Below are positions 14,803 to 52,719 of a stretch of DNA of 64,000 bases, piece by piece (the stretch's first letter is position 1; every line of letters begins with the position of its first letter). The notes beneath the pieces are model-generated. The model saw nothing but the letters and a program-made list of their open reading frames with translations. It was not told where the DNA came from and ran no database searches. Origin of the DNA: Escherichia coli (GTDB taxonomy: Bacteria; Pseudomonadota; Gammaproteobacteria; Enterobacterales; Enterobacteriaceae). The stretch is taken from the NCBI RefSeq assembly GCF_003334335.1, contig NZ_QOWQ01000001.1; one strand, written 5' to 3'. The translations under genes and the position numbers were made by a program.

Positions 14803-17691
14803 ATGCCCCACAGCACCTGGTTCAAAGCATTATTGTTGTTAGTTGCCCTTTGGGCACCCTTAAGTCAGGCAGAAACGGAATGGCAGCCGATTCAGGAAAC
14901 CATCCGTAAAAGTGATAAAGATAACCGCCAGTATCAGGCTATACGTCTGGATAACGGTATGGTGGTCTTGCTGGTTTCTGATCCGCAGGCAGTTAAATCG
15001 CTCTCGGCGCTGGTGGTGCCCGTTGGGTCGCTGGAAGATCCCGAGGCGTACCAGGGGCTGGCACATTACCTTGAACATATGAGTCTGATGGGGTCGAAAA
15101 AGTACCCGCAGGCTGACAGTCTGGCCGAATATCTCAAAATGCACGGCGGTAGTCACAATGCCAGCACTGCGCCGTATCGCACGGCTTTCTATCTGGAAGT
15201 TGAGAACGACGCCTTGCCTGGTGCGGTAGACCGCCTGGCCGATGCTATTGCTGAACCTTTGCTCGACAAGAAATATGCCGAACGTGAGCGTAATGCGGTG
15301 AACGCTGAATTAACCATGGCGCGTACGCGTGACGGGATGCGCATGGCACAGGTCAGCGCAGAAACCATTAACCCGGCACACCCCGGTTCAAAGTTTTCTG
15401 GTGGTAACCTCGAAACTTTAAGCGACAAACCTGGTAATCCGGTGCAGCAGGCGCTGAAAGATTTCCACGAGAAGTACTATTCCGCCAATTTGATGAAGGC
15501 GGTTATTTACAGTAATAAACCGCTGCCGGAGTTGGCAAAAATGGCGGCGGACACCTTTGGTCGCGTGCCGAACAAAGAGAGCAAAAAACCGGAAATCACC
15601 GTGCCGGTAGTCACCGACGCGCAAAAGGGCATTATCATTCATTACGTCCCTGCGCTGCCGCGTAAAGTGTTGCGCGTTGAGTTTCGCATCGATAACAACT
15701 CAGCGAAGTTCCGTAGTAAAACCGATGAATTGATTACCTATCTGATTGGCAATCGCAGCCCAGGTACACTTTCTGACTGGCTGCAAAAGCAGGGATTAGT
15801 TGAGGGCATTAGCGCCAACTCCGATCCTATCGTCAACGGCAACAGCGGCGTATTAGCGATCTCTGCGTCTTTAACCGATAAAGGCCTGGCTAATCGCGAT
15901 CAGGTTGTGGCGGCAATTTTTAGCTATCTCAATCTGTTACGTGAAAAAGGCATTGATAAACAATACTTCGATGAACTGGCGAATGTGCTGGATATCGACT
16001 TCCGTTATCCGTCGATCACCCGTGATATGGATTACGTCGAATGGCTGGCAGATACCATGATTCGCGTTCCTGTTGAGCATACGCTGGATGCAGTCAATAT
16101 TGCCGATCGGTACGATGCTAAAGCAGTAAAGGAACGTCTGGCGATGATGACGCCGCAGAATGCGCGTATCTGGTATATCAGCCCGAAAGAGCCGCACAAC
16201 AAAACGGCTTACTTTGTCGATGCGCCGTATCAGGTCGATAAAATCAGCGCACAAACTTTCGCCGACTGGCAGAAAAAAGCCGCCGACATTGCGCTCTCTT
16301 TGCCAGAGCTTAACCCTTATATTCCTGATGATTTCTCGCTGATTAAGTCAGAGAAGAAATACGACCATCCAGAGCTGATTGTTGATGAGTCGAATCTGCG
16401 CGTGGTGTATGCGCCAAGCCGTTATTTTGCCAGCGAGCCCAAAGCTGATGTCAGCCTGATTTTGCGTAATCCGAAAGCCATGGACAGCGCCCGCAATCAG
16501 GTGATGTTTGCGCTCAATGATTATCTCGCAGGGCTGGCGCTTGATCAGTTAAGCAACCAGGCGTCGGTTGGTGGCATAAGTTTTTCCACCAACGCTAACA
16601 ACGGCCTTATGGTTAATGCTAATGGTTACACCCAGCGTCTGCCGCAGCTGTTCCAGGCATTGCTCGAGGGGTACTTTAGCTATACCGCTACGGAAGATCA
16701 GCTTGAGCAGGCGAAGTCCTGGTATAACCAGATGATGGATTCCGCAGAAAAGGGTAAAGCGTTTGAGCAGGCGATTATGCCCGCGCAGATGCTCTCGCAA
16801 GTGCCGTACTTCTCGCGAGATGAACGGCGTAAAATTTTGCCCTCCATTACGTTGAAAGAGGTGCTGGCCTATCGCGACGCCTTAAAATCAGGGGCTCGAC
16901 CAGAGTTTATGGTTATCGGCAACATGACCGAGGCCCAGGCAACAACGCTGGCACGCGATGTGCAAAAACAGTTGGGCGCTGATGGTTCAGAGTGGTGTCG
17001 AAACAAAGATGTAGTGGTCGATAAAAAACAATCCGTCATCTTTGAAAAAGCCGGTAACAGCACCGACTCCGCACTGGCAGCGGTATTTGTACCGACTGGC
17101 TACGATGAATACACCAGCTCAGCCTATAGCTCTCTGTTGGGGCAGATCGTACAGCCGTGGTTCTACAATCAGTTGCGTACCGAAGAACAATTGGGCTATG
17201 CCGTGTTTGCGTTTCCAATGAGCGTGGGGCGTCAGTGGGGCATGGGCTTCCTTTTGCAAAGCAATGATAAACAGCCTTCATTCTTGTGGGAGCGTTACAA
17301 GGCGTTTTTCCCAACCGCAGAGGCAAAATTGCGAGCGATGAAGCCAGATGAGTTTGCGCAAATCCAGCAGGCGGTAATTACCCAGATGCTGCAGGCACCG
17401 CAAACGCTCGGCGAAGAAGCATCGAAGTTAAGTAAAGATTTCGATCGCGGCAATATGCGCTTCGATTCGCGTGATAAAATCGTGGCCCAGATAAAACTGC
17501 TGACGCCGCAAAAACTTGCTGATTTCTTCCATCAGGCGGTGGTCGAGCCGCAAGGCATGGCTATTCTGTCGCAGATTTCCGGCAGCCAGAACGGGAAAGC
17601 CGAATATGTACACCCTGAAGGCTGGAAAGTGTGGGAGAACGTCAGCGCGTTGCAGCAAACAATGCCCCTGATGAGTGAAAAGAATGAGTGA
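14803..17691 (+). CDS. ptrA: Periplasmic protease III (pitrilysin) PtrA
   Basis: 962-aa ORF with signal peptide and inverted zinc-binding motif HYLEH. Confidence 0.95.
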   Translation: MPHSTWFKALLLLVALWAPLSQAETEWQPIQETIRKSDKDNRQYQAIRLDNGMVVLLVSDPQAVKSLSALVVPVGSLEDPEAYQGLAHYLEHMSLMGSKKYPQADSLAEYLKMHGGSHNASTAPYRTAFYLEVENDALPGAVDRLADAIAEPLLDKKYAERERNAVNAELTMARTRDGMRMAQVSAETINPAHPGSKFSGGNLETLSDKPGNPVQQALKDFHEKYYSANLMKAVIYSNKPLPELAKMAADTFGRVPNKESKKPEITVPVVTDAQKGIIIHYVPALPRKVLRVEFRIDNNSAKFRSKTDELITYLIGNRSPGTLSDWLQKQGLVEGISANSDPIVNGNSGVLAISASLTDKGLANRDQVVAAIFSYLNLLREKGIDKQYFDELANVLDIDFRYPSITRDMDYVEWLADTMIRVPVEHTLDAVNIADRYDAKAVKERLAMMTPQNARIWYISPKEPHNKTAYFVDAPYQVDKISAQTFADWQKKAADIALSLPELNPYIPDDFSLIKSEKKYDHPELIVDESNLRVVYAPSRYFASEPKADVSLILRNPKAMDSARNQVMFALNDYLAGLALDQLSNQASVGGISFSTNANNGLMVNANGYTQRLPQLFQALLEGYFSYTATEDQLEQAKSWYNQMMDSAEKGKAFEQAIMPAQMLSQVPYFSRDERRKILPSITLKEVLAYRDALKSGARPEFMVIGNMTEAQATTLARDVQKQLGADGSEWCRNKDVVVDKKQSVIFEKAGNSTDSALAAVFVPTGYDEYTSSAYSSLLGQIVQPWFYNQLRTEEQLGYAVFAFPMSVGRQWGMGFLLQSNDKQPSFLWERYKAFFPTAEAKLRAMKPDEFAQIQQAVITQMLQAPQTLGEEASKLSKDFDRGNMRFDSRDKIVAQIKLLTPQKLADFFHQAVVEPQGMAILSQISGSQNGKAEYVHPEGWKVWENVSALQQTMPLMSEKNE

Positions 17692-21226: not shown

Positions 21227-23052
21227 TGAAATTGCAAAAGCAATTACTGGAAGCTGTGGAGCACAAACAGCTACGCCCGCTGGATGTGCAATTTGCCCTG
21301 ACCGTGGCGGGAGATGAACATCCTGCCGTCACCCTCGCGGCGGCACTGTTAAGTCATGATGCCGGAGAGGGACACGTTTGTTTGCCGCTTTCACGACTGG
21401 AAAATAACGAGGCGTCGCATCCGCTGTTGGCGACCTGTGTCAGTGAAATCGGTGAGCTACAAAATTGGGAAGAATGCTTGCTGGCTTCTCAAGCGGTCAG
21501 CAGGGGAGATGAACCCACGCCGATGATCCTCTGTGGCGATCGTCTTTATTTGAATCGCATGTGGTGTAACGAGCGCACAGTGGCACGCTTTTTCAACGAA
21601 GTGAATCATGCCATTGAGGTTGATGAAGCTCTACTGGCGCAAACCCTGGACAAACTTTTTCCAGTAAGCGATGAAATTAACTGGCAAAAAGTTGCGGCGG
21701 CAGTGGCGCTGACGCGGCGGATCTCGGTGATTTCCGGCGGCCCTGGCACCGGTAAAACGACCACCGTAGCGAAGTTGCTGGCAGCGTTAATTCAAATGGC
21801 CGACGGCGAACGCTGCCGTATCCGTCTGGCTGCACCAACGGGTAAAGCTGCCGCGCGCTTAACCGAATCTCTCGGCAAGGCTTTGCGACAGTTACCGCTG
21901 ACCGATGAACAAAAGAAACGCATTCCGGAAGATGCCAGCACTTTGCACCGATTGCTGGGCGCGCAGCCGGGTAGCCAGCGTTTACGTCATCATGCCGGTA
22001 ACCCGCTGCATCTTGATGTGCTGGTGGTAGATGAAGCGTCAATGATCGATCTGCCTATGATGTCGAGACTGATCGACGCCTTGCCCGATCATGCGCGAGT
22101 GATCTTTCTCGGCGATCGTGATCAACTGGCCTCGGTTGAGGCTGGGGCTGTGCTGGGCGATATCTGCGCTTATGCCAACGCGGGCTTTACCGCCGAGCGT
22201 GCCAGGCAGCTAAGCCGCCTGACGGGGACTCACGTTCCGGCAGGAACCGGCACAGAAGCGGCATCTTTGCGCGACAGTCTCTGCCTGCTGCAAAAAAGCT
22301 ATCGTTTCGGCAGCGATTCTGGCATTGGTCAGTTAGCTGCGGCGATCAACCGTGGTGATAAAACGGCAGTGAAAACCGTTTTTCAGCAGGATTTTACTGA
22401 TATCGAAAAACGGCTTTTACAGAGCGGCGAAGATTATATTGCGATGCTTGAGGAAGCTCTTGCGGGTTACGGACGTTATCTGGATCTGCTGCAAGCGCGT
22501 GCCGAGCCGGATTTAATCATTCAGGCGTTCAATGAGTACCAGCTTTTGTGCGCCCTGCGGGAAGGGCCGTTTGGCGTGGCTGGACTGAATGAGCGAATTG
22601 AGCAGTTTATGCAACAGAAGCGCAAAATTCATCGTCATCCGCACTCTCGTTGGTACGAAGGTCGACCGGTGATGATTGCCCGTAATGACAGCGCGCTTGG
22701 GTTGTTTAATGGCGATATCGGTATTGCGCTGGATCGCGGGCAGGGGACGCGCGTCTGGTTTGCGATGCCGGACGGCAATATTAAGTCTGTGCAACCGAGT
22801 CGCTTGCCAGAGCACGAAACTACGTGGGCGATGACGGTACATAAATCGCAGGGATCGGAGTTCGACCATGCGGCGTTGATTTTGCCGAGCCAACGCACGC
22901 CGGTAGTAACGCGAGAGCTGGTTTATACCGCGGTGACCCGCGCGCGTCGCCGTCTGTCGCTGTATGCCGATGAGCGCATATTAAGTGCGGCAATCGCCAC
23001 TCGTACTGAGCGGCGCAGTGGTCTGGCGGCGTTGTTTAGTTCACGGGAATAA
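21226..23052 (+). CDS. recD: Exodeoxyribonuclease V subunit RecD
   Basis: 608-aa ORF; ATG overlaps recB TAA (TAATG); Walker A motif GGPGTGKTT. Confidence 0.95.
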
Positions 23053-48942: not shown

Positions 48943-49310
48943 GTCGACAGGGAGTCAGACAACGAAGTGAACATCAGGATGATGACACTTCTGCAGGACA
49001 CACCAGGATGGTGTTTCAGGGAAAGGCTTCTGGATGAAGCGAAGAGGATGACGCAGGACGCGTTAAAGGACACCTCCAGGATGGAGAATGAGAACCGGTC
49101 AGGATGATTCGGTGGGTCAGGAAGGCCAGGGACACTTCAGGATGAAGTATCACATCGGGGTGGTGTGAGCAGGAAGCAATAGTTCAGGATGAACGATTGG
49201 CCGCAAGGCCAGAGGAAAAGTTGTCAAGGATGAGCAGGGAGCAACAAAAGTAGCTGGAATGCTGCGAAACGAACCGGGAGCGCTGTGAATACAGTGCTCC
49301 CTTTTTTTAT
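48943..49310 (+). ncRNA. csrB: CsrB regulatory RNA (CsrA-sequestering)
   Basis: About 368 nt starting GTCGACAGGGAGTCAGAC; at least 8 AGGATG hexamers plus further GGA motifs; ends in a GGGAGCGC...GCTCCC hairpin with T7 run. Confidence 0.85.
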
Positions 49311-49353
49311 TCCTGCTATCCTTCGCGGCAGTTTTTCTTATTGAGGTTGCTTT

Positions 49354-49683
49354 ATGACCACTCATGACCGCGTTCGTCTCCAGTTGCAGGCGCTTGAAGC
49401 GTTACTGCGTGAACATCAGCACTGGCGAAACGATGAACCCCAGCCGCATCAATTTAATAGTACCCAACCGTTCTTTATGGACACCATGGAACCACTGGAG
49501 TGGTTGCAGTGGGTGCTGATCCCGCGAATGCACGATTTGTTAGATAACAAACAGCCGTTACCGGGCGCTTTTGCCGTTGCACCCTATTATGAAATGGCGC
49601 TGGCGACGGACCATCCGCAACGCGCGCTTATTCTGGCTGAGCTGGAAAAACTGGATGCTCTTTTTGCGGATGATGCGAGCTAA
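49354..49683 (+). CDS. yqcC: DUF446 protein YqcC
   Basis: 109-aa ORF; stop overlaps truC ATG (TAATG). Confidence 0.85.
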   Translation: MTTHDRVRLQLQALEALLREHQHWRNDEPQPHQFNSTQPFFMDTMEPLEWLQWVLIPRMHDLLDNKQPLPGAFAVAPYYEMALATDHPQRALILAELEKLDALFADDAS

Positions 49684-50465
49684 TGCTGGAAATACTCTAT
49701 CAGGATGAATGGCTGGTTGCGGTAAATAAACCCTCCGGCTGGCTGGTTCACCGCAGCTGGCTGGATCGCGACGAGAAAGTAGTGGTCATGCAAACCGTGC
49801 GTGACCAGATAGGCCAGCATGTTTTTACTGCTCATCGTCTGGACCGACCCACTTCTGGTGTGTTGTTGATGGGATTATCCAGCGAGGCCGGACGGCTGCT
49901 GGCACAACAGTTTGAACAGCACCAAATCCAGAAACGTTACCATGCGATTGTGCGCGGCTGGTTGATGGAAGAAGCGGTGCTGGATTATCCACTGGTGGAA
50001 GAACTGGACAAAATCGCTGATAAATTTGCCCGCGAAGATAAAGGCCCGCAGCCAGCAGTGACGCATTATCGCGGTCTGGCGACCGTAGAAATGCCGGTAG
50101 CGACCGGACGTTACCCGACCACGCGCTACGGCCTGGTGGAACTGGAGCCGAAAACCGGACGCAAACATCAGCTTCGCCGACATCTTGCCCATTTGCGTCA
50201 TCCGATTATTGGCGATAGCAAACATGGCGATTTACGCCAGAATCGCAGCGGTGCTGAGCATTTTGGCCTCCAGCGGTTAATGCTACATGCCAGTCAGTTG
50301 TCATTGACGCATCCTTTTACTGGCGAGCCGCTGACTATTCACGCGGGCCTGGACGACACCTGGATGCAGGCGTTATCACAATTTGGCTGGCGCGGTCTGC
50401 TTCCTGAAAATGAAAGGGTTGAGTTCAGTGCGCCATCGGGTCAGGATGGAGAGATAAGTTCCTAA
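49683..50465 (+). CDS. truC: tRNA pseudouridine(65) synthase TruC
   Basis: 260-aa RluA-family ORF. Confidence 0.9.
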
Positions 50466-50482: not shown

Positions 50483-50932
50483 ATGGCGGAAATTGGTATT
50501 TTTGTCGGCACCATGTACGGGAATTCACTGTTAGTGGCCGAAGAAGCGGAAGCGATTCTGACCGCGCAGGGCCACAAAGCAACGGTATTTGAAGATCCTG
50601 AATTAAGCGACTGGCTGCCCTATCAGGATAAGTATGTTCTGGTGGTTACGTCCACGACCGGGCAGGGCGACCTTCCTGATAGCATTGTGCCACTCTTTCA
50701 GGGAATCAAAGATAGTCTGGGCTTCCAGCCGAATCTGCGTTATGGCGTGATTGCGCTCGGCGACAGTAGTTATGTGAATTTCTGCAATGGCGGCAAACAG
50801 TTCGATGCCTTGTTGCAGGAACAGAGCGCTCAGCGGGTTGGCGAAATGCTGTTGATTGACGCCAGTGAGAACCCGGAACCGGAAACGGAATCAAATCCGT
50901 GGGTCGAACAGTGGGGCACGCTGTTGTCCTGA
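50483..50932 (+). CDS. yqcA: Flavodoxin-like protein YqcA
   Basis: 149-aa ORF with flavodoxin-type N-terminus. Confidence 0.9.
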
Positions 50933-51366
50933 TATGTTCAGCGAGCGGTAAATGTCGTTTTAGCGGTGCTGAATCGAATCTTTTCAGGCAAATGCCAGTA
51001 AAAACTGCTTCATAGCGCGGATTTTTACTGGCGTTTGCCTGGAGTCAAGCGATCCATTTCATACTCTTCTTTATTTCTTCGTTTTAACCCTTCCTTTCTT
51101 GTTCTTGTTTTCATTTCCGTGAAGTGGATTCCACCGTCCAGGGCTAATGCCAAAATCGGGCCTCATTGAACGCATTAATGTTGTGTTGTTGCACGGTGAG
51201 CCGCTATGGCGCGCTTTTTATACTGCTATTGCCAGATATAAACACGCGCCGTATTCGGCGAACGACCTATAAAAACGGCAAAAAACACCCTACGTCACCT
51301 CTGATTTCCTGGCGATGTCGCAGTCCAGAGTGAGCGTGGCTAACGCGAATTTTCAGGAGTGCAACA

Positions 51367-52719
51367 ATGAGTTCTTTAAGTCAGGCTGCGAGCAGTGTGG
51401 AAAAACGCACAAATGCTCGTTACTGGATAGTGGTGATGTTGTTTATCGTCACATCCTTCAACTACGGCGACCGCGCTACGCTCTCTATCGCCGGTTCGGA
51501 AATGGCCAAAGATATCGGCCTTGATCCCGTGGGAATGGGCTATGTGTTCTCTGCTTTCTCATGGGCTTATGTTATCGGGCAGATCCCTGGTGGCTGGTTG
51601 CTGGACCGTTTTGGTTCAAAACGCGTCTACTTCTGGTCGATCTTTATCTGGTCGATGTTTACCTTGCTGCAAGGCTTCGTCGATATCTTTAGTGGATTCG
51701 GCATTATCGTTGCCCTGTTTACGCTGCGCTTCCTGGTCGGGCTTGCTGAAGCGCCATCTTTCCCCGGCAACAGTCGCATTGTTGCGGCCTGGTTTCCGGC
51801 GCAGGAAAGGGGAACGGCGGTGTCGATTTTTAACTCCGCTCAATACTTCGCAACGGTGATCTTCGCGCCGATTATGGGCTGGCTGACGCATGAAGTGGGC
51901 TGGTCACACGTCTTCTTCTTTATGGGCGGTCTGGGGATTGTCATCAGCTTTATCTGGTTGAAAGTCATCCACGAGCCAAATCAACATCCGGGGGTAAATA
52001 AGAAAGAGCTGGAGTACATCGCCGCGGGTGGTGCGCTGATCAATATGGATCAGCAAAACACCAAAGTTAAAGTGCCGTTCAGCGTGAAGTGGGGGCAGAT
52101 CAAACAGCTGCTAGGGTCACGGATGATGATCGGCGTTTATATCGGTCAGTACTGTATCAACGCCCTGACTTACTTCTTTATTACCTGGTTCCCGGTTTAT
52201 CTGGTGCAGGCACGCGGGATGTCGATTCTGAAAGCGGGCTTTGTGGCTTCCGTTCCGGCGGTTTGCGGTTTTATCGGCGGTGTGCTGGGTGGGATTATTT
52301 CCGACTGGCTGATGCGCCGCACGGGATCGCTGAACATTGCGCGTAAAACACCGATCGTAATGGGCATGTTGCTGTCGATGGTGATGGTGTTCTGCAACTA
52401 CGTCAACGTTGAGTGGATGATCATCGGCTTTATGGCGCTGGCCTTCTTCGGTAAGGGCATCGGGGCGCTGGGTTGGGCAGTAATGGCAGATACCGCGCCA
52501 AAAGAGATCAGCGGTCTTTCCGGTGGCCTGTTCAACATGTTCGGTAACATTTCTGGCATCGTCACGCCAATCGCAATTGGTTATATCGTTGGCACGACTG
52601 GCTCGTTTAATGGGGCGCTGATTTATGTTGGTGTTCATGCCTTAATCGCGGTACTGAGCTACCTGGTGCTGGTGGGCGATATCAAGCGTATCGAGTTGAA
52701 ACCTGTTGCGGGGCAATAA
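51367..52719 (+). CDS. gudP: Glucarate/galactarate transporter GudP (MFS)
   Basis: 450-aa multi-pass ORF. Confidence 0.9.

Follow-up and report, generated by a model that had tools for sequence, protein, structure and literature searches.

The DNA analysed here (the window) is a 64-kb stretch of the E. coli chromosome in which three co-oriented plus-strand genes, yqcC (49354-49683), truC (49683-50465) and the flavodoxin gene yqcA (50483-50932), are followed by gudP (51367-52719) in the same orientation. The csrB RNA, recognised by its Rfam match, lies upstream of the yqcC-truC-yqcA run at 48952-49311. A spacer of 434 bp, closed by the gudP ATG at 51367, separates yqcA from gudP; it is identical to K-12 MG1655 at 434/434 positions, and K-12 coordinates equal 2973467 minus the window coordinate (verified). 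A putative −10 hexamer of the gudP promoter, TATACT, occupies 51219-51224 on the plus strand and is conserved in 27 of 28 aligned spacers (the exception, locus L062, has CATACA), with the arrangement GTGAGA-17-TATACT being called promoter-like in loci L008 and L009. The K-12 annotation holds no feature at the position of the inverted repeat described below, and a literature search found nothing on yqcA together with gudP, nor on Cra with gudP.

A long stem-loop found at one place per genome

The spacer contains a long inverted repeat, composed of a left arm CAGGCAAATGCCAGTAAAAA (50985-51004), a 17-nt loop (51005-51021) and a right arm TTTTTACTGGCGTTTGCCTG (51022-51041), with a single mismatch between the arms. 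Its coordinates (50985-51041) and geometry agree exactly with those given in a first-pass annotation of this DNA, which had placed it about 50 bp after the yqcA stop in a 434-bp spacer; the measured distance is 52 nt. The left arm ends in an A5 tract (51000-51004) and the right arm starts with a T5 tract (51022-51026).

When the yqcA 3' region was folded as plus-strand RNA with ViennaRNA, the repeat formed the core of a larger stem-loop spanning 50982-51044, with a free energy of −40.3 kcal/mol for 67 nt. The stem comprises 27 pairs, of which 23 form the outer helix (three of them U.G) and four form an inner stem. Beyond the 20-bp arms, the fold adds three base pairs at the foot (two U.G and one U-A) and four within the loop, where CUGC (51005-51008) pairs with GCGG (51017-51020) below an 8-nt terminal loop, in what appears to be a decayed terminator tip. 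A bulged A at 51021 is all that separates this weak inner stem from the U5 tract that follows. The earlier observation that no clean T-run comes after the repeat is correct for the full stem, which is followed by GUCAAGCGAUCC, but it missed the T5 tract buried inside the 3' arm. Judged from the putative −10 hexamer, gudP transcription would start some 190-240 bp downstream of the hairpin, leaving it out of the gudP leader.

An inverted repeat of this kind is far beyond chance. Scanning the 64-kb window for arms with at most one mismatch and loops of 3-40 nt retrieved it as the only repeat with arms of at least 16 bp, and the longest arm in 20 shuffles was 14. No other 70-nt segment of the window, on either strand, folds as stably as the hairpin (−40.3 kcal/mol; mean −16.1, standard deviation 4.9), and in a 141-nt fold the z-score reached −6.6 on the plus strand and −3.8 on the minus strand.

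Three identities had been proposed for the repeat, namely a protein-binding palindrome, an RNA structure in the truC-yqcA 3' UTR, and an unclassified small repeat. The last of these is refuted by copy number. BLAST placed the 107-nt element with its spacer in 5,426/5,426 complete E. coli genomes, 4,940 of which matched the 107 nt at 99% identity or better. In both near and distant BLAST modes the element occupied one place per genome (median 1, maximum 2). Within the window, the arm sequence matched just two places at up to 3 mismatches, both of them in the repeat itself (0.02 expected). A dispersed intergenic repeat of the REP/BIME, ERIC/IRU, box C or MITE type might be suspected from an imperfect palindrome inside an intergenic spacer, and from the REP-like sequences found at the equivalent place in Enterobacter species; however, the single location in 5,426 genomes in a search that also covered plasmids, the lack of a second arm copy in the window, and the single copy of the larger homologous block in Citrobacter leave this idea with practically no chance of being right, and for E. 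coli we reject it. Rfam 15, searched with E values up to 10, gave nothing at the spacer in E. coli or Salmonella, returning only csrB upstream and chance matches. The matches of the Citrobacter block to records labelled as plasmids were confined to records of 0.73 to 4.9 Mb, which look chromosomal.

Strand bias and maintained pairing point to an RNA structure

The RNA-structure option is the best supported of the three. All of the non-Watson-Crick positions in the K-12 stem (50982, 50984 and 50993) are U.G on the plus strand; the sole mismatch between the arms, T50993 opposite G51033, is a G.U pair in plus-strand RNA and an A.C mismatch on the minus strand. In each of six Escherichia sequences (6/6) the plus-strand fold was more stable than the minus-strand fold, by 2.6 to 13.7 kcal/mol. 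A polymorphism in E. coli ML35, C50995T, follows the same rule, turning a C-G pair into U.G on the plus strand.

Conservation of pairing was assessed on an alignment of 28 yqcA-gudP spacers by scoring a named structure against controls in which the partners were slid. The 23-pair E. coli helix was 67.6% paired, as compared to 28-47% with slid partners, and its covariation score was 0.170 as compared to 0.065-0.107, figures that still contain the phylogenetic relatedness of the sequences. A 7-bp segment outside the A/T tracts reached 77% pairing (30-41% with slid partners) and a covariation score of 0.242 (≤0.087 with slid partners), again with relatedness included; one pair in this segment occurs as CG in 9 sequences, AU in 7, UA in 3 and UG in 2. 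RNAalifold, run on all 28 sequences, returned no consensus long hairpin, and the stem of one Escherichia lineage (L002) contains C.A and A.C mismatches, showing that the pairing constraint is not absolute. From the alignment, the evidence for pairing appears to hold for the Escherichia-Citrobacter-Salmonella group only.

One conserved feature requires a separate account. The left arm contains a GGC-N4-GCC core whose G, C and C bases are invariant in all 28 sequences, including genera in which the two arms do not pair, so that RNA pairing between the arms is no explanation for this invariance. A small local hairpin (GGGC-N4-GCCC) or another factor may be responsible.

The hairpin most likely descends from a bidirectional terminator

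For comparison we examined 80 yqcA loci from Enterobacteriaceae. In 69 of these gudP follows yqcA within the flank, and 27 of the 69 have a homologue of the element. In the 28-spacer alignment, the same columns hold an A-tract, then a GC stem whose sequence varies, then a T-tract. Most of the genera other than Escherichia have a conserved CCCTCCC..GGGAGGG hairpin without a T-run after the yqcA stop, and about 100 nt beyond it an A-tract, a GC-rich stem-loop and a T-tract, as in C. koseri (AAAACCCTTTCATACGAAAGGGTTTT). The sequence of the GC stem varies between genera yet remains paired, and the tip of one Citrobacter homologue (L008) was scored as terminator-like on both strands by the terminator scan. 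By its sequence, the homologous element in relatives is thus shaped like a bidirectional intrinsic terminator. Escherichia lacks the first hairpin, and there the tip of the second has weakened to −2.8 kcal/mol in E. coli and 0.0 in Escherichia L006, as compared to −4.5 to −8.8 kcal/mol in relatives.

The flanks of the tip show the opposite distribution. The z-score of the flank duplex ranges from −4.5 to −9.2 in six Escherichia sequences and from −2.2 to −3.8 in two Citrobacter, one Salmonella and one Superficieibacter sequence, and is close to zero in Raoultella, Phytobacter, Kosakonia and Silvania. The hairpin is conserved in all E. coli and across the Escherichia clades. Complementarity of the flanks is of middling strength in the four relatives just named, and the remaining ones lack it. 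Since flank complementarity is strong in Escherichia only, the 20-bp arms represent an Escherichia-specific lengthening of an older hairpin. The first-pass annotation was therefore both accurate and informative in noting that the arms exceed a typical terminator stem in length, as their length records this extension of an ancestral terminator-like hairpin. In the cryptic Escherichia clades the stretch leading from the yqcA stop to the hairpin has been replaced or shortened, and the hairpin is retained. Some other genera lack the element and have short spacers or REP-like sequences in its place; in locus L014, where about 2 kb separates yqcA and gudP, the spacer is of the short type and the hairpin is absent.

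These comparisons suggest that the E. coli hairpin most likely descends from the bidirectional intrinsic terminator found at this position in many Enterobacteriaceae. Both its layout and its intergenic position are those of the bidirectional Rho-independent terminators of this family. It differs from them in that its GC stem has only 4 pairs, its U5 tract is enclosed by the outer helix of 23 bp, and its full stem has no T-run after it.

Termination between yqcA and gudP

The terminator scan made no plus-strand call at the hairpin in E. coli, where the inner stem (−2.8 kcal/mol) is not the stable, GC-rich stem that precedes the 3' end in an intrinsic terminator. Mapping of 3' ends gave a concordant picture: the curated Term-seq lists of Adams et al. 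2021 (PMC7815308) contain no transcript 3' end at K-12 29224xx, hence none at the U-tract, and no yqcA entry, for cells grown in LB to OD 0.4 and 2.0 and in M63 glucose, conditions in which low expression may mask an end. The TERMITe supplements likewise have no entry for the yqcA-gudP locus. The published data therefore fit a hairpin that is a weak or poor canonical terminator in E. coli.

Read-through is lost in a Rho-dependent manner somewhere around the spacer. A Rho-dependent termination region peaks at 51349 on the plus strand (K-12 2922118(−); Adams et al. 2021, PMC7815308, Supplementary file 2), with 114 reads upstream and 23 downstream without bicyclomycin (BCM), as compared to 112 and 90 with BCM, and a Rho score of 3.98 (p = 9×10−8). 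The score is computed over 800-nt windows that also cover yqcA and gudP sequence, and at this low resolution it shows only that Rho keeps RNA from the yqcA side out of gudP. Just after the hairpin, at 51040-51139 on the plus strand, lies a C-rich, G-poor and T-rich tract with a GC skew of −0.38 to −0.42 in 80-nt windows, which by composition is a candidate Rho loading (rut-like) region.

Protective stem-loops at the processed 3' ends of Rho-terminated transcripts have reportedly been described by Dar and Sorek in 2018. The arrangement here is similar, with a stable hairpin that has no U-tail, a C-rich tract after it and a Rho region downstream. Two points set it apart from such stem-loops: the curated Term-seq lists contain no stable 3' end at the base of the hairpin, and the yqcA stem is far longer than an exonuclease block requires.

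A putative RNase III site at the base of the stem

A published map of RNase III-dependent reads includes a putative cleavage site named "intergenic gudP-yqcA" at K-12 2922422, which is 51045 in the window and hence the first nucleotide 3' of the stem (Gordon et al. 2017, PMC5371410, Table S1). At this position 48 reads were found in the RNase III deletion, as compared to 0 and 1 in the wild type, the reads having no strand assignment. Sites in that table are peaks of the ratio of reads in the rnc deletion to those in the wild type, taken from two wild-type replicates and a single mutant sample. A read difference between the rnc deletion and the wild type is on record at the stem base; the counts are low, and the same table gives higher values in the mutant also for gudP (65 vs 0 and 2), garP (65 vs 0 and 0) and cdaR (48 vs 1 and 1) (PMC5371410). 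This pattern may mean no more than a higher transcription of this region in the rnc mutant. Eight of the 18 top putative sites of the same study were not cut in vitro (PMC5371410).

The structure itself has the properties expected of a substrate. RNase III accommodates a helix of about 22 bp (PMC6212723), and the enzyme's requirement for a near-continuous helix of about 20-22 bp or more compares with 23 + 4 pairs here, a helix that exceeds 22 bp and is interrupted by one bulged A. The hairpin is therefore probably an RNase III substrate; the enzyme would then cut it directly, with possible consequences for the expression of yqcA or gudP. Counterparts are the pflB-pflA and ahpC-ahpF intergenic sites (PMC5371410), in which structured RNA between co-oriented genes is cut in read-through transcripts. 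The yqcA-gudP site came out of the same read-ratio analysis and shares the supplementary table with them; however, the pflB-pflA and ahpC-ahpF sites had read counts in the hundreds to thousands and were verified by in vitro cleavage, whereas the yqcA-gudP site is putative, with 48 reads.

Alternative explanations

As a protein-binding palindrome, the repeat could hold two inverted operators for the regulator of gudPXD (CdaR or another protein), spaced about four helical turns apart, with the hairpin being incidental. Several observations speak for this. Each arm contains a GGC-N4-GCC mini-palindrome (GGCAAATGCC and GGCGTTTGCC), the pattern recurs upstream of the gudP promoter at 51142 (GGCTAATGCC), and the left-arm core is invariant even in genera without complementary arms. 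Moreover, in the garP-garD control region GCAAATGC and GCATATGC are 42 bp apart, as compared to 43 bp between the arm centres. To score the arms we aligned the garD upstream regions of six other genera and E. coli, in which two sites are strongly conserved across the seven genera (GnGCAwAyGCmCA and GCGCTaATGCACA), and built a matrix from these conserved gar sites only. With this matrix the arms ranked 420th and 1037th of 127,976 window positions, which is the chance level for the 868-position spacer, and the E. coli gar region lacked the simple GGC-N4-GCC pattern. Operators do not usually consist of 20-bp arms with 17 bp between them; the palindrome in the right arm is not conserved beyond Escherichia; and our literature search found no paper describing a CdaR binding motif. 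Selection on DNA would not readily explain mismatches that are G.U-compatible on one strand only, the pair that covaries through three Watson-Crick types, or a GC-rich tip that changes sequence between genera and stays paired, a mark of selection on a hairpin. We therefore reject CdaR or other operators in the arms, and consider this explanation improbable. The same matrix ranked position 51141 (GGGCTAATGCCAA) 4th of 127,976, so that an operator of the gud/gar regulator is probably present in the spacer, predicted at 51141 and distinct from the inverted repeat.

Two further explanations were considered. The hairpin could be a decaying terminator relic with no current function that persists because it does no harm, its flanks having been made complementary by one or a few quasi-palindrome (template-switch) mutations. 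Quasi-palindrome correction is able to template adjacent changes in one patch, and the right flank, which changed from TTTTCATAGGG in Citrobacter to TTTGCCTGGAG, includes adjacent changes creating GCCTG that could represent one such patch. That the extension past the ancestral pairing is confined to Escherichia implies that the long stem is young and could be a neutral by-product; the two mismatches tolerated in lineage L002, the empty Term-seq record, and the other genera that manage without the element all point in the same direction. However, this mechanism can explain the origin of the extension and only poorly its retention: the element is present in every E. coli genome searched, at 99% identity or better in 4,940 of the 5,426; the hairpin persisted in cryptic Escherichia clades while the sequence upstream turned over; the changes that did occur are mostly G.U-compatible on the sense strand; and an RNA duplex of 27 bp is unlikely to be ignored by RNase III, with a published read difference lying at its base. 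We consider a functionless relic unlikely. A small RNA derived from the 3' UTR and bound by Hfq, with the hairpin as its terminator and Hfq handle and the conserved single-stranded GCUGAAUCG just upstream as its seed, is far less credible. It would account for the conservation of CTGAATCG(A/T)GTTAGC directly 5' of the hairpin across many genera, and relatives do have a proper stem with a U-tract; as their first hairpin lacks a T-run, the second would end a 3' UTR of about 150-165 nt. The E. coli stem, however, has no U-tail and no Term-seq 3' end in the curated lists, no Rfam family matches in E. coli or Salmonella, the sRNA prediction tables based on RIL-seq contain no node for the yqcA 3' UTR or intergenic region (only a low-degree "yqcA CDS"), and the literature search found no such RNA. 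An Hfq-dependent sRNA is thus unsupported in E. coli, and conceivable in genera with an intact terminator, where CTGAATCGWGTTAGC is conserved just upstream.

A model for the yqcA-gudP boundary

The reading that we favour, with a probability that we put at roughly 0.55, is that the repeat is a terminator-derived, 27-bp hairpin in a 3' UTR at the yqcA/gudP boundary, at which canonical termination is weak, Rho acts downstream and RNase III processes the RNA. The repeat would act as plus-strand RNA, presumably transcribed as part of the yqcA mRNA and forming a stem-loop in the 3' UTR of the yqcC-truC-yqcA transcript. In the Escherichia lineage, the GC tip would have decayed, making canonical termination at the U5 tract weak, and the A/T-tract flanks would have become fully complementary. 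If termination at U5 is weak, RNA polymerase mostly reads through and the full helix can form. Rho would then end transcription further downstream, after the C-rich tract and before gudP. RNase III would cut the long duplex, separating the yqcA message from the read-through RNA that extends toward gudP, and a hairpin that escapes cutting would block 3' exonucleases. The terminator-shaped homologue in relatives, and an RNase III-deletion peak located 1 nt from the stem base, both back an RNA-level role.

The combination of a buried U-tract and a longer helix resembles a known regulatory element. In phage lambda, the sib/tI terminator lies inside a longer helix whose outer part forms only in read-through RNA; RNase III cuts this long helix, which is located on the 3' side of the regulated gene. 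The yqcA hairpin has this architecture, its U5 tract at 51022-51026 being followed by 18 more nucleotides of the 3' arm that pair with 50982-50999. It might therefore be a chromosomal counterpart of sib, built in Escherichia by erosion of the tip and perfection of the outer stem, in which RNAs stopped at U5 would end in a short hairpin resistant to RNase III, and read-through RNAs would complete the 27-bp helix and be cut, destabilising the truC-yqcA message and removing RNA that was on its way into the glucarate operon. This proposal is a tentative one and in our judgement quite unlikely; no antitermination system is known at yqcA, and the likeness is one of architecture rather than homology.

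If the favoured reading is correct, the yqcA-gudP boundary would be a natural case of a bidirectional terminator that lost its GC tip and gained a long outer helix, with termination handed to Rho and 3'-end processing to RNase III. The element lies where a housekeeping operon (truC-yqcA) gives way to an inducible catabolic one (gudPXD), and would become one more characterised example among the few RNase III sites known from E. coli 3' UTRs. It would represent a fairly ordinary gene-boundary element and no new class of mechanism; its use would lie in the annotation of transcript boundaries in E. coli K-12, and as a compact test case for telling terminators from RNase III sites.

Other sequence features of the arms

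Two other features overlap the arms. An ATG within the left arm opens a frame of only 7 codons in E. coli and has no counterpart in C. koseri; this short, non-conserved frame was rejected as a small ORF. The right arm is overlapped by a promoter-like sequence on the minus strand, TTGACT-16-AAAAAT, whose −10 lacks the final T in Citrobacter and Salmonella.

A candidate operator upstream of gudP

Scanning the window (127,976 positions) with a weight matrix built only from the conserved sites upstream of garD in seven genera placed GGGCTAATGCCAA, at 51141-51153 in the yqcA-gudP spacer, fourth among all positions. The distance from this site to the inferred gudP start downstream (putative −10 box TATACT at 51219-51224) is about 85 bp. 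The yqcA-gudP spacers, those of the short Enterobacter type among them, retain it in the form GGGCTTTTGCCAC or GGGCTTATGCCCC. Judged from its sequence, it is a candidate operator for the gud/gar regulator, possibly CdaR; a literature search found no published CdaR motif. The two best matches to the matrix in the window, GCGCTTATGCCAA at 22166 (+) and GCGCTAATGCCCT at 15803 (−), may be chance matches.

Three related motifs are found in the garP-garD intergenic region of E. coli (locus L082): GTGCAAATGCTAA at 7037-7049, GAGCATATGCACA at 7079-7091 and GCGCTAAAGCACA at 7101-7113, with successive spacings of 42 and 22 bp. Across seven genera, GAGCATATGCACA and GCGCTAAAGCACA show strong conservation. 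A CRP site has been published at K-12 position 3275166, and these motifs lie upstream of it.

Expression of the regulon and termination before gudP

Published read counts (Gordon et al. 2017, Table S1, PMC5371410) are higher in an RNase III deletion mutant than in the two wild-type samples for gudP (K-12 2921482; 65 reads versus 0 and 2), garP (3274632; 65 versus 0 and 0) and cdaR (182886; 48 versus 1 and 1). Since all three genes have more reads in the mutant, these data suggest that the entire glucarate/galactarate regulon is elevated in the deletion mutant or in its strain background. A Rho-dependent termination region was also reported just upstream of the gudP ATG, at window position 51349 (K-12 2922118, minus strand; Adams et al. 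2021, Supplementary file 2, PMC7815308), and its target could be read-through from yqcA, the gudP leader, or both.

Conserved blocks on both sides of the hairpin

The hairpin predicted downstream of the yqcA stop (50982-51044, +) is adjoined on its 5' side by a conserved block, GCTGAATCGAATCTTT (50968-50983), which is kept in many genera in the form CTGAATCG(A/T)GTTAGC. The left half of this block matches GCTGAAnCG, the half-site of Cra/FruR and the LacI family; a literature search found no link between Cra and gudP. On the other side lies a second conserved block, GTCAAGCGATCCATTTCATACTC (51044-51066), which also occurs in the hairpin-less genera Leclercia, Atlantibacter and Franconibacter. 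Two parts of it, TCAAG..GA and TTCA, do not vary among the 28 aligned spacers. Its form in most genera, AGCGAC-N5-TTCACAC, resembles a CRP-type site in which one half, TCACA, is good, the E. coli version of this half being TCATA.

An IS66-family element has inserted into this second block in E. coli 2014C-4135, at the equivalent of 51049/51050, five bases past the hairpin stem and within the conserved GTCAAG|CGA, so that the hairpin is split from the gudP control region.

Other local structures

Most non-Escherichia genera have in common a conserved stem-loop, CCCTCCC-CCTAC-GGGAGGG, directly after the yqcA stop (first ~45 nt, loci L007-L081), and usually no T-run follows it. In Enterobacter and the Citrobacter freundii group its place is taken by REP-like GCCGGGTAAGGCG..CCGCCACCCGGC sequences. 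Elsewhere in the window, the hairpin TTAACGCCGGTTTTAACCGGCGTTAA (1017-1047), which follows a stop codon, is by its sequence an ordinary bidirectional terminator-like structure. Together with the adjacent GGCGCTG..CAGCGCC, it forms a local fold that ranks second in stability across the window.
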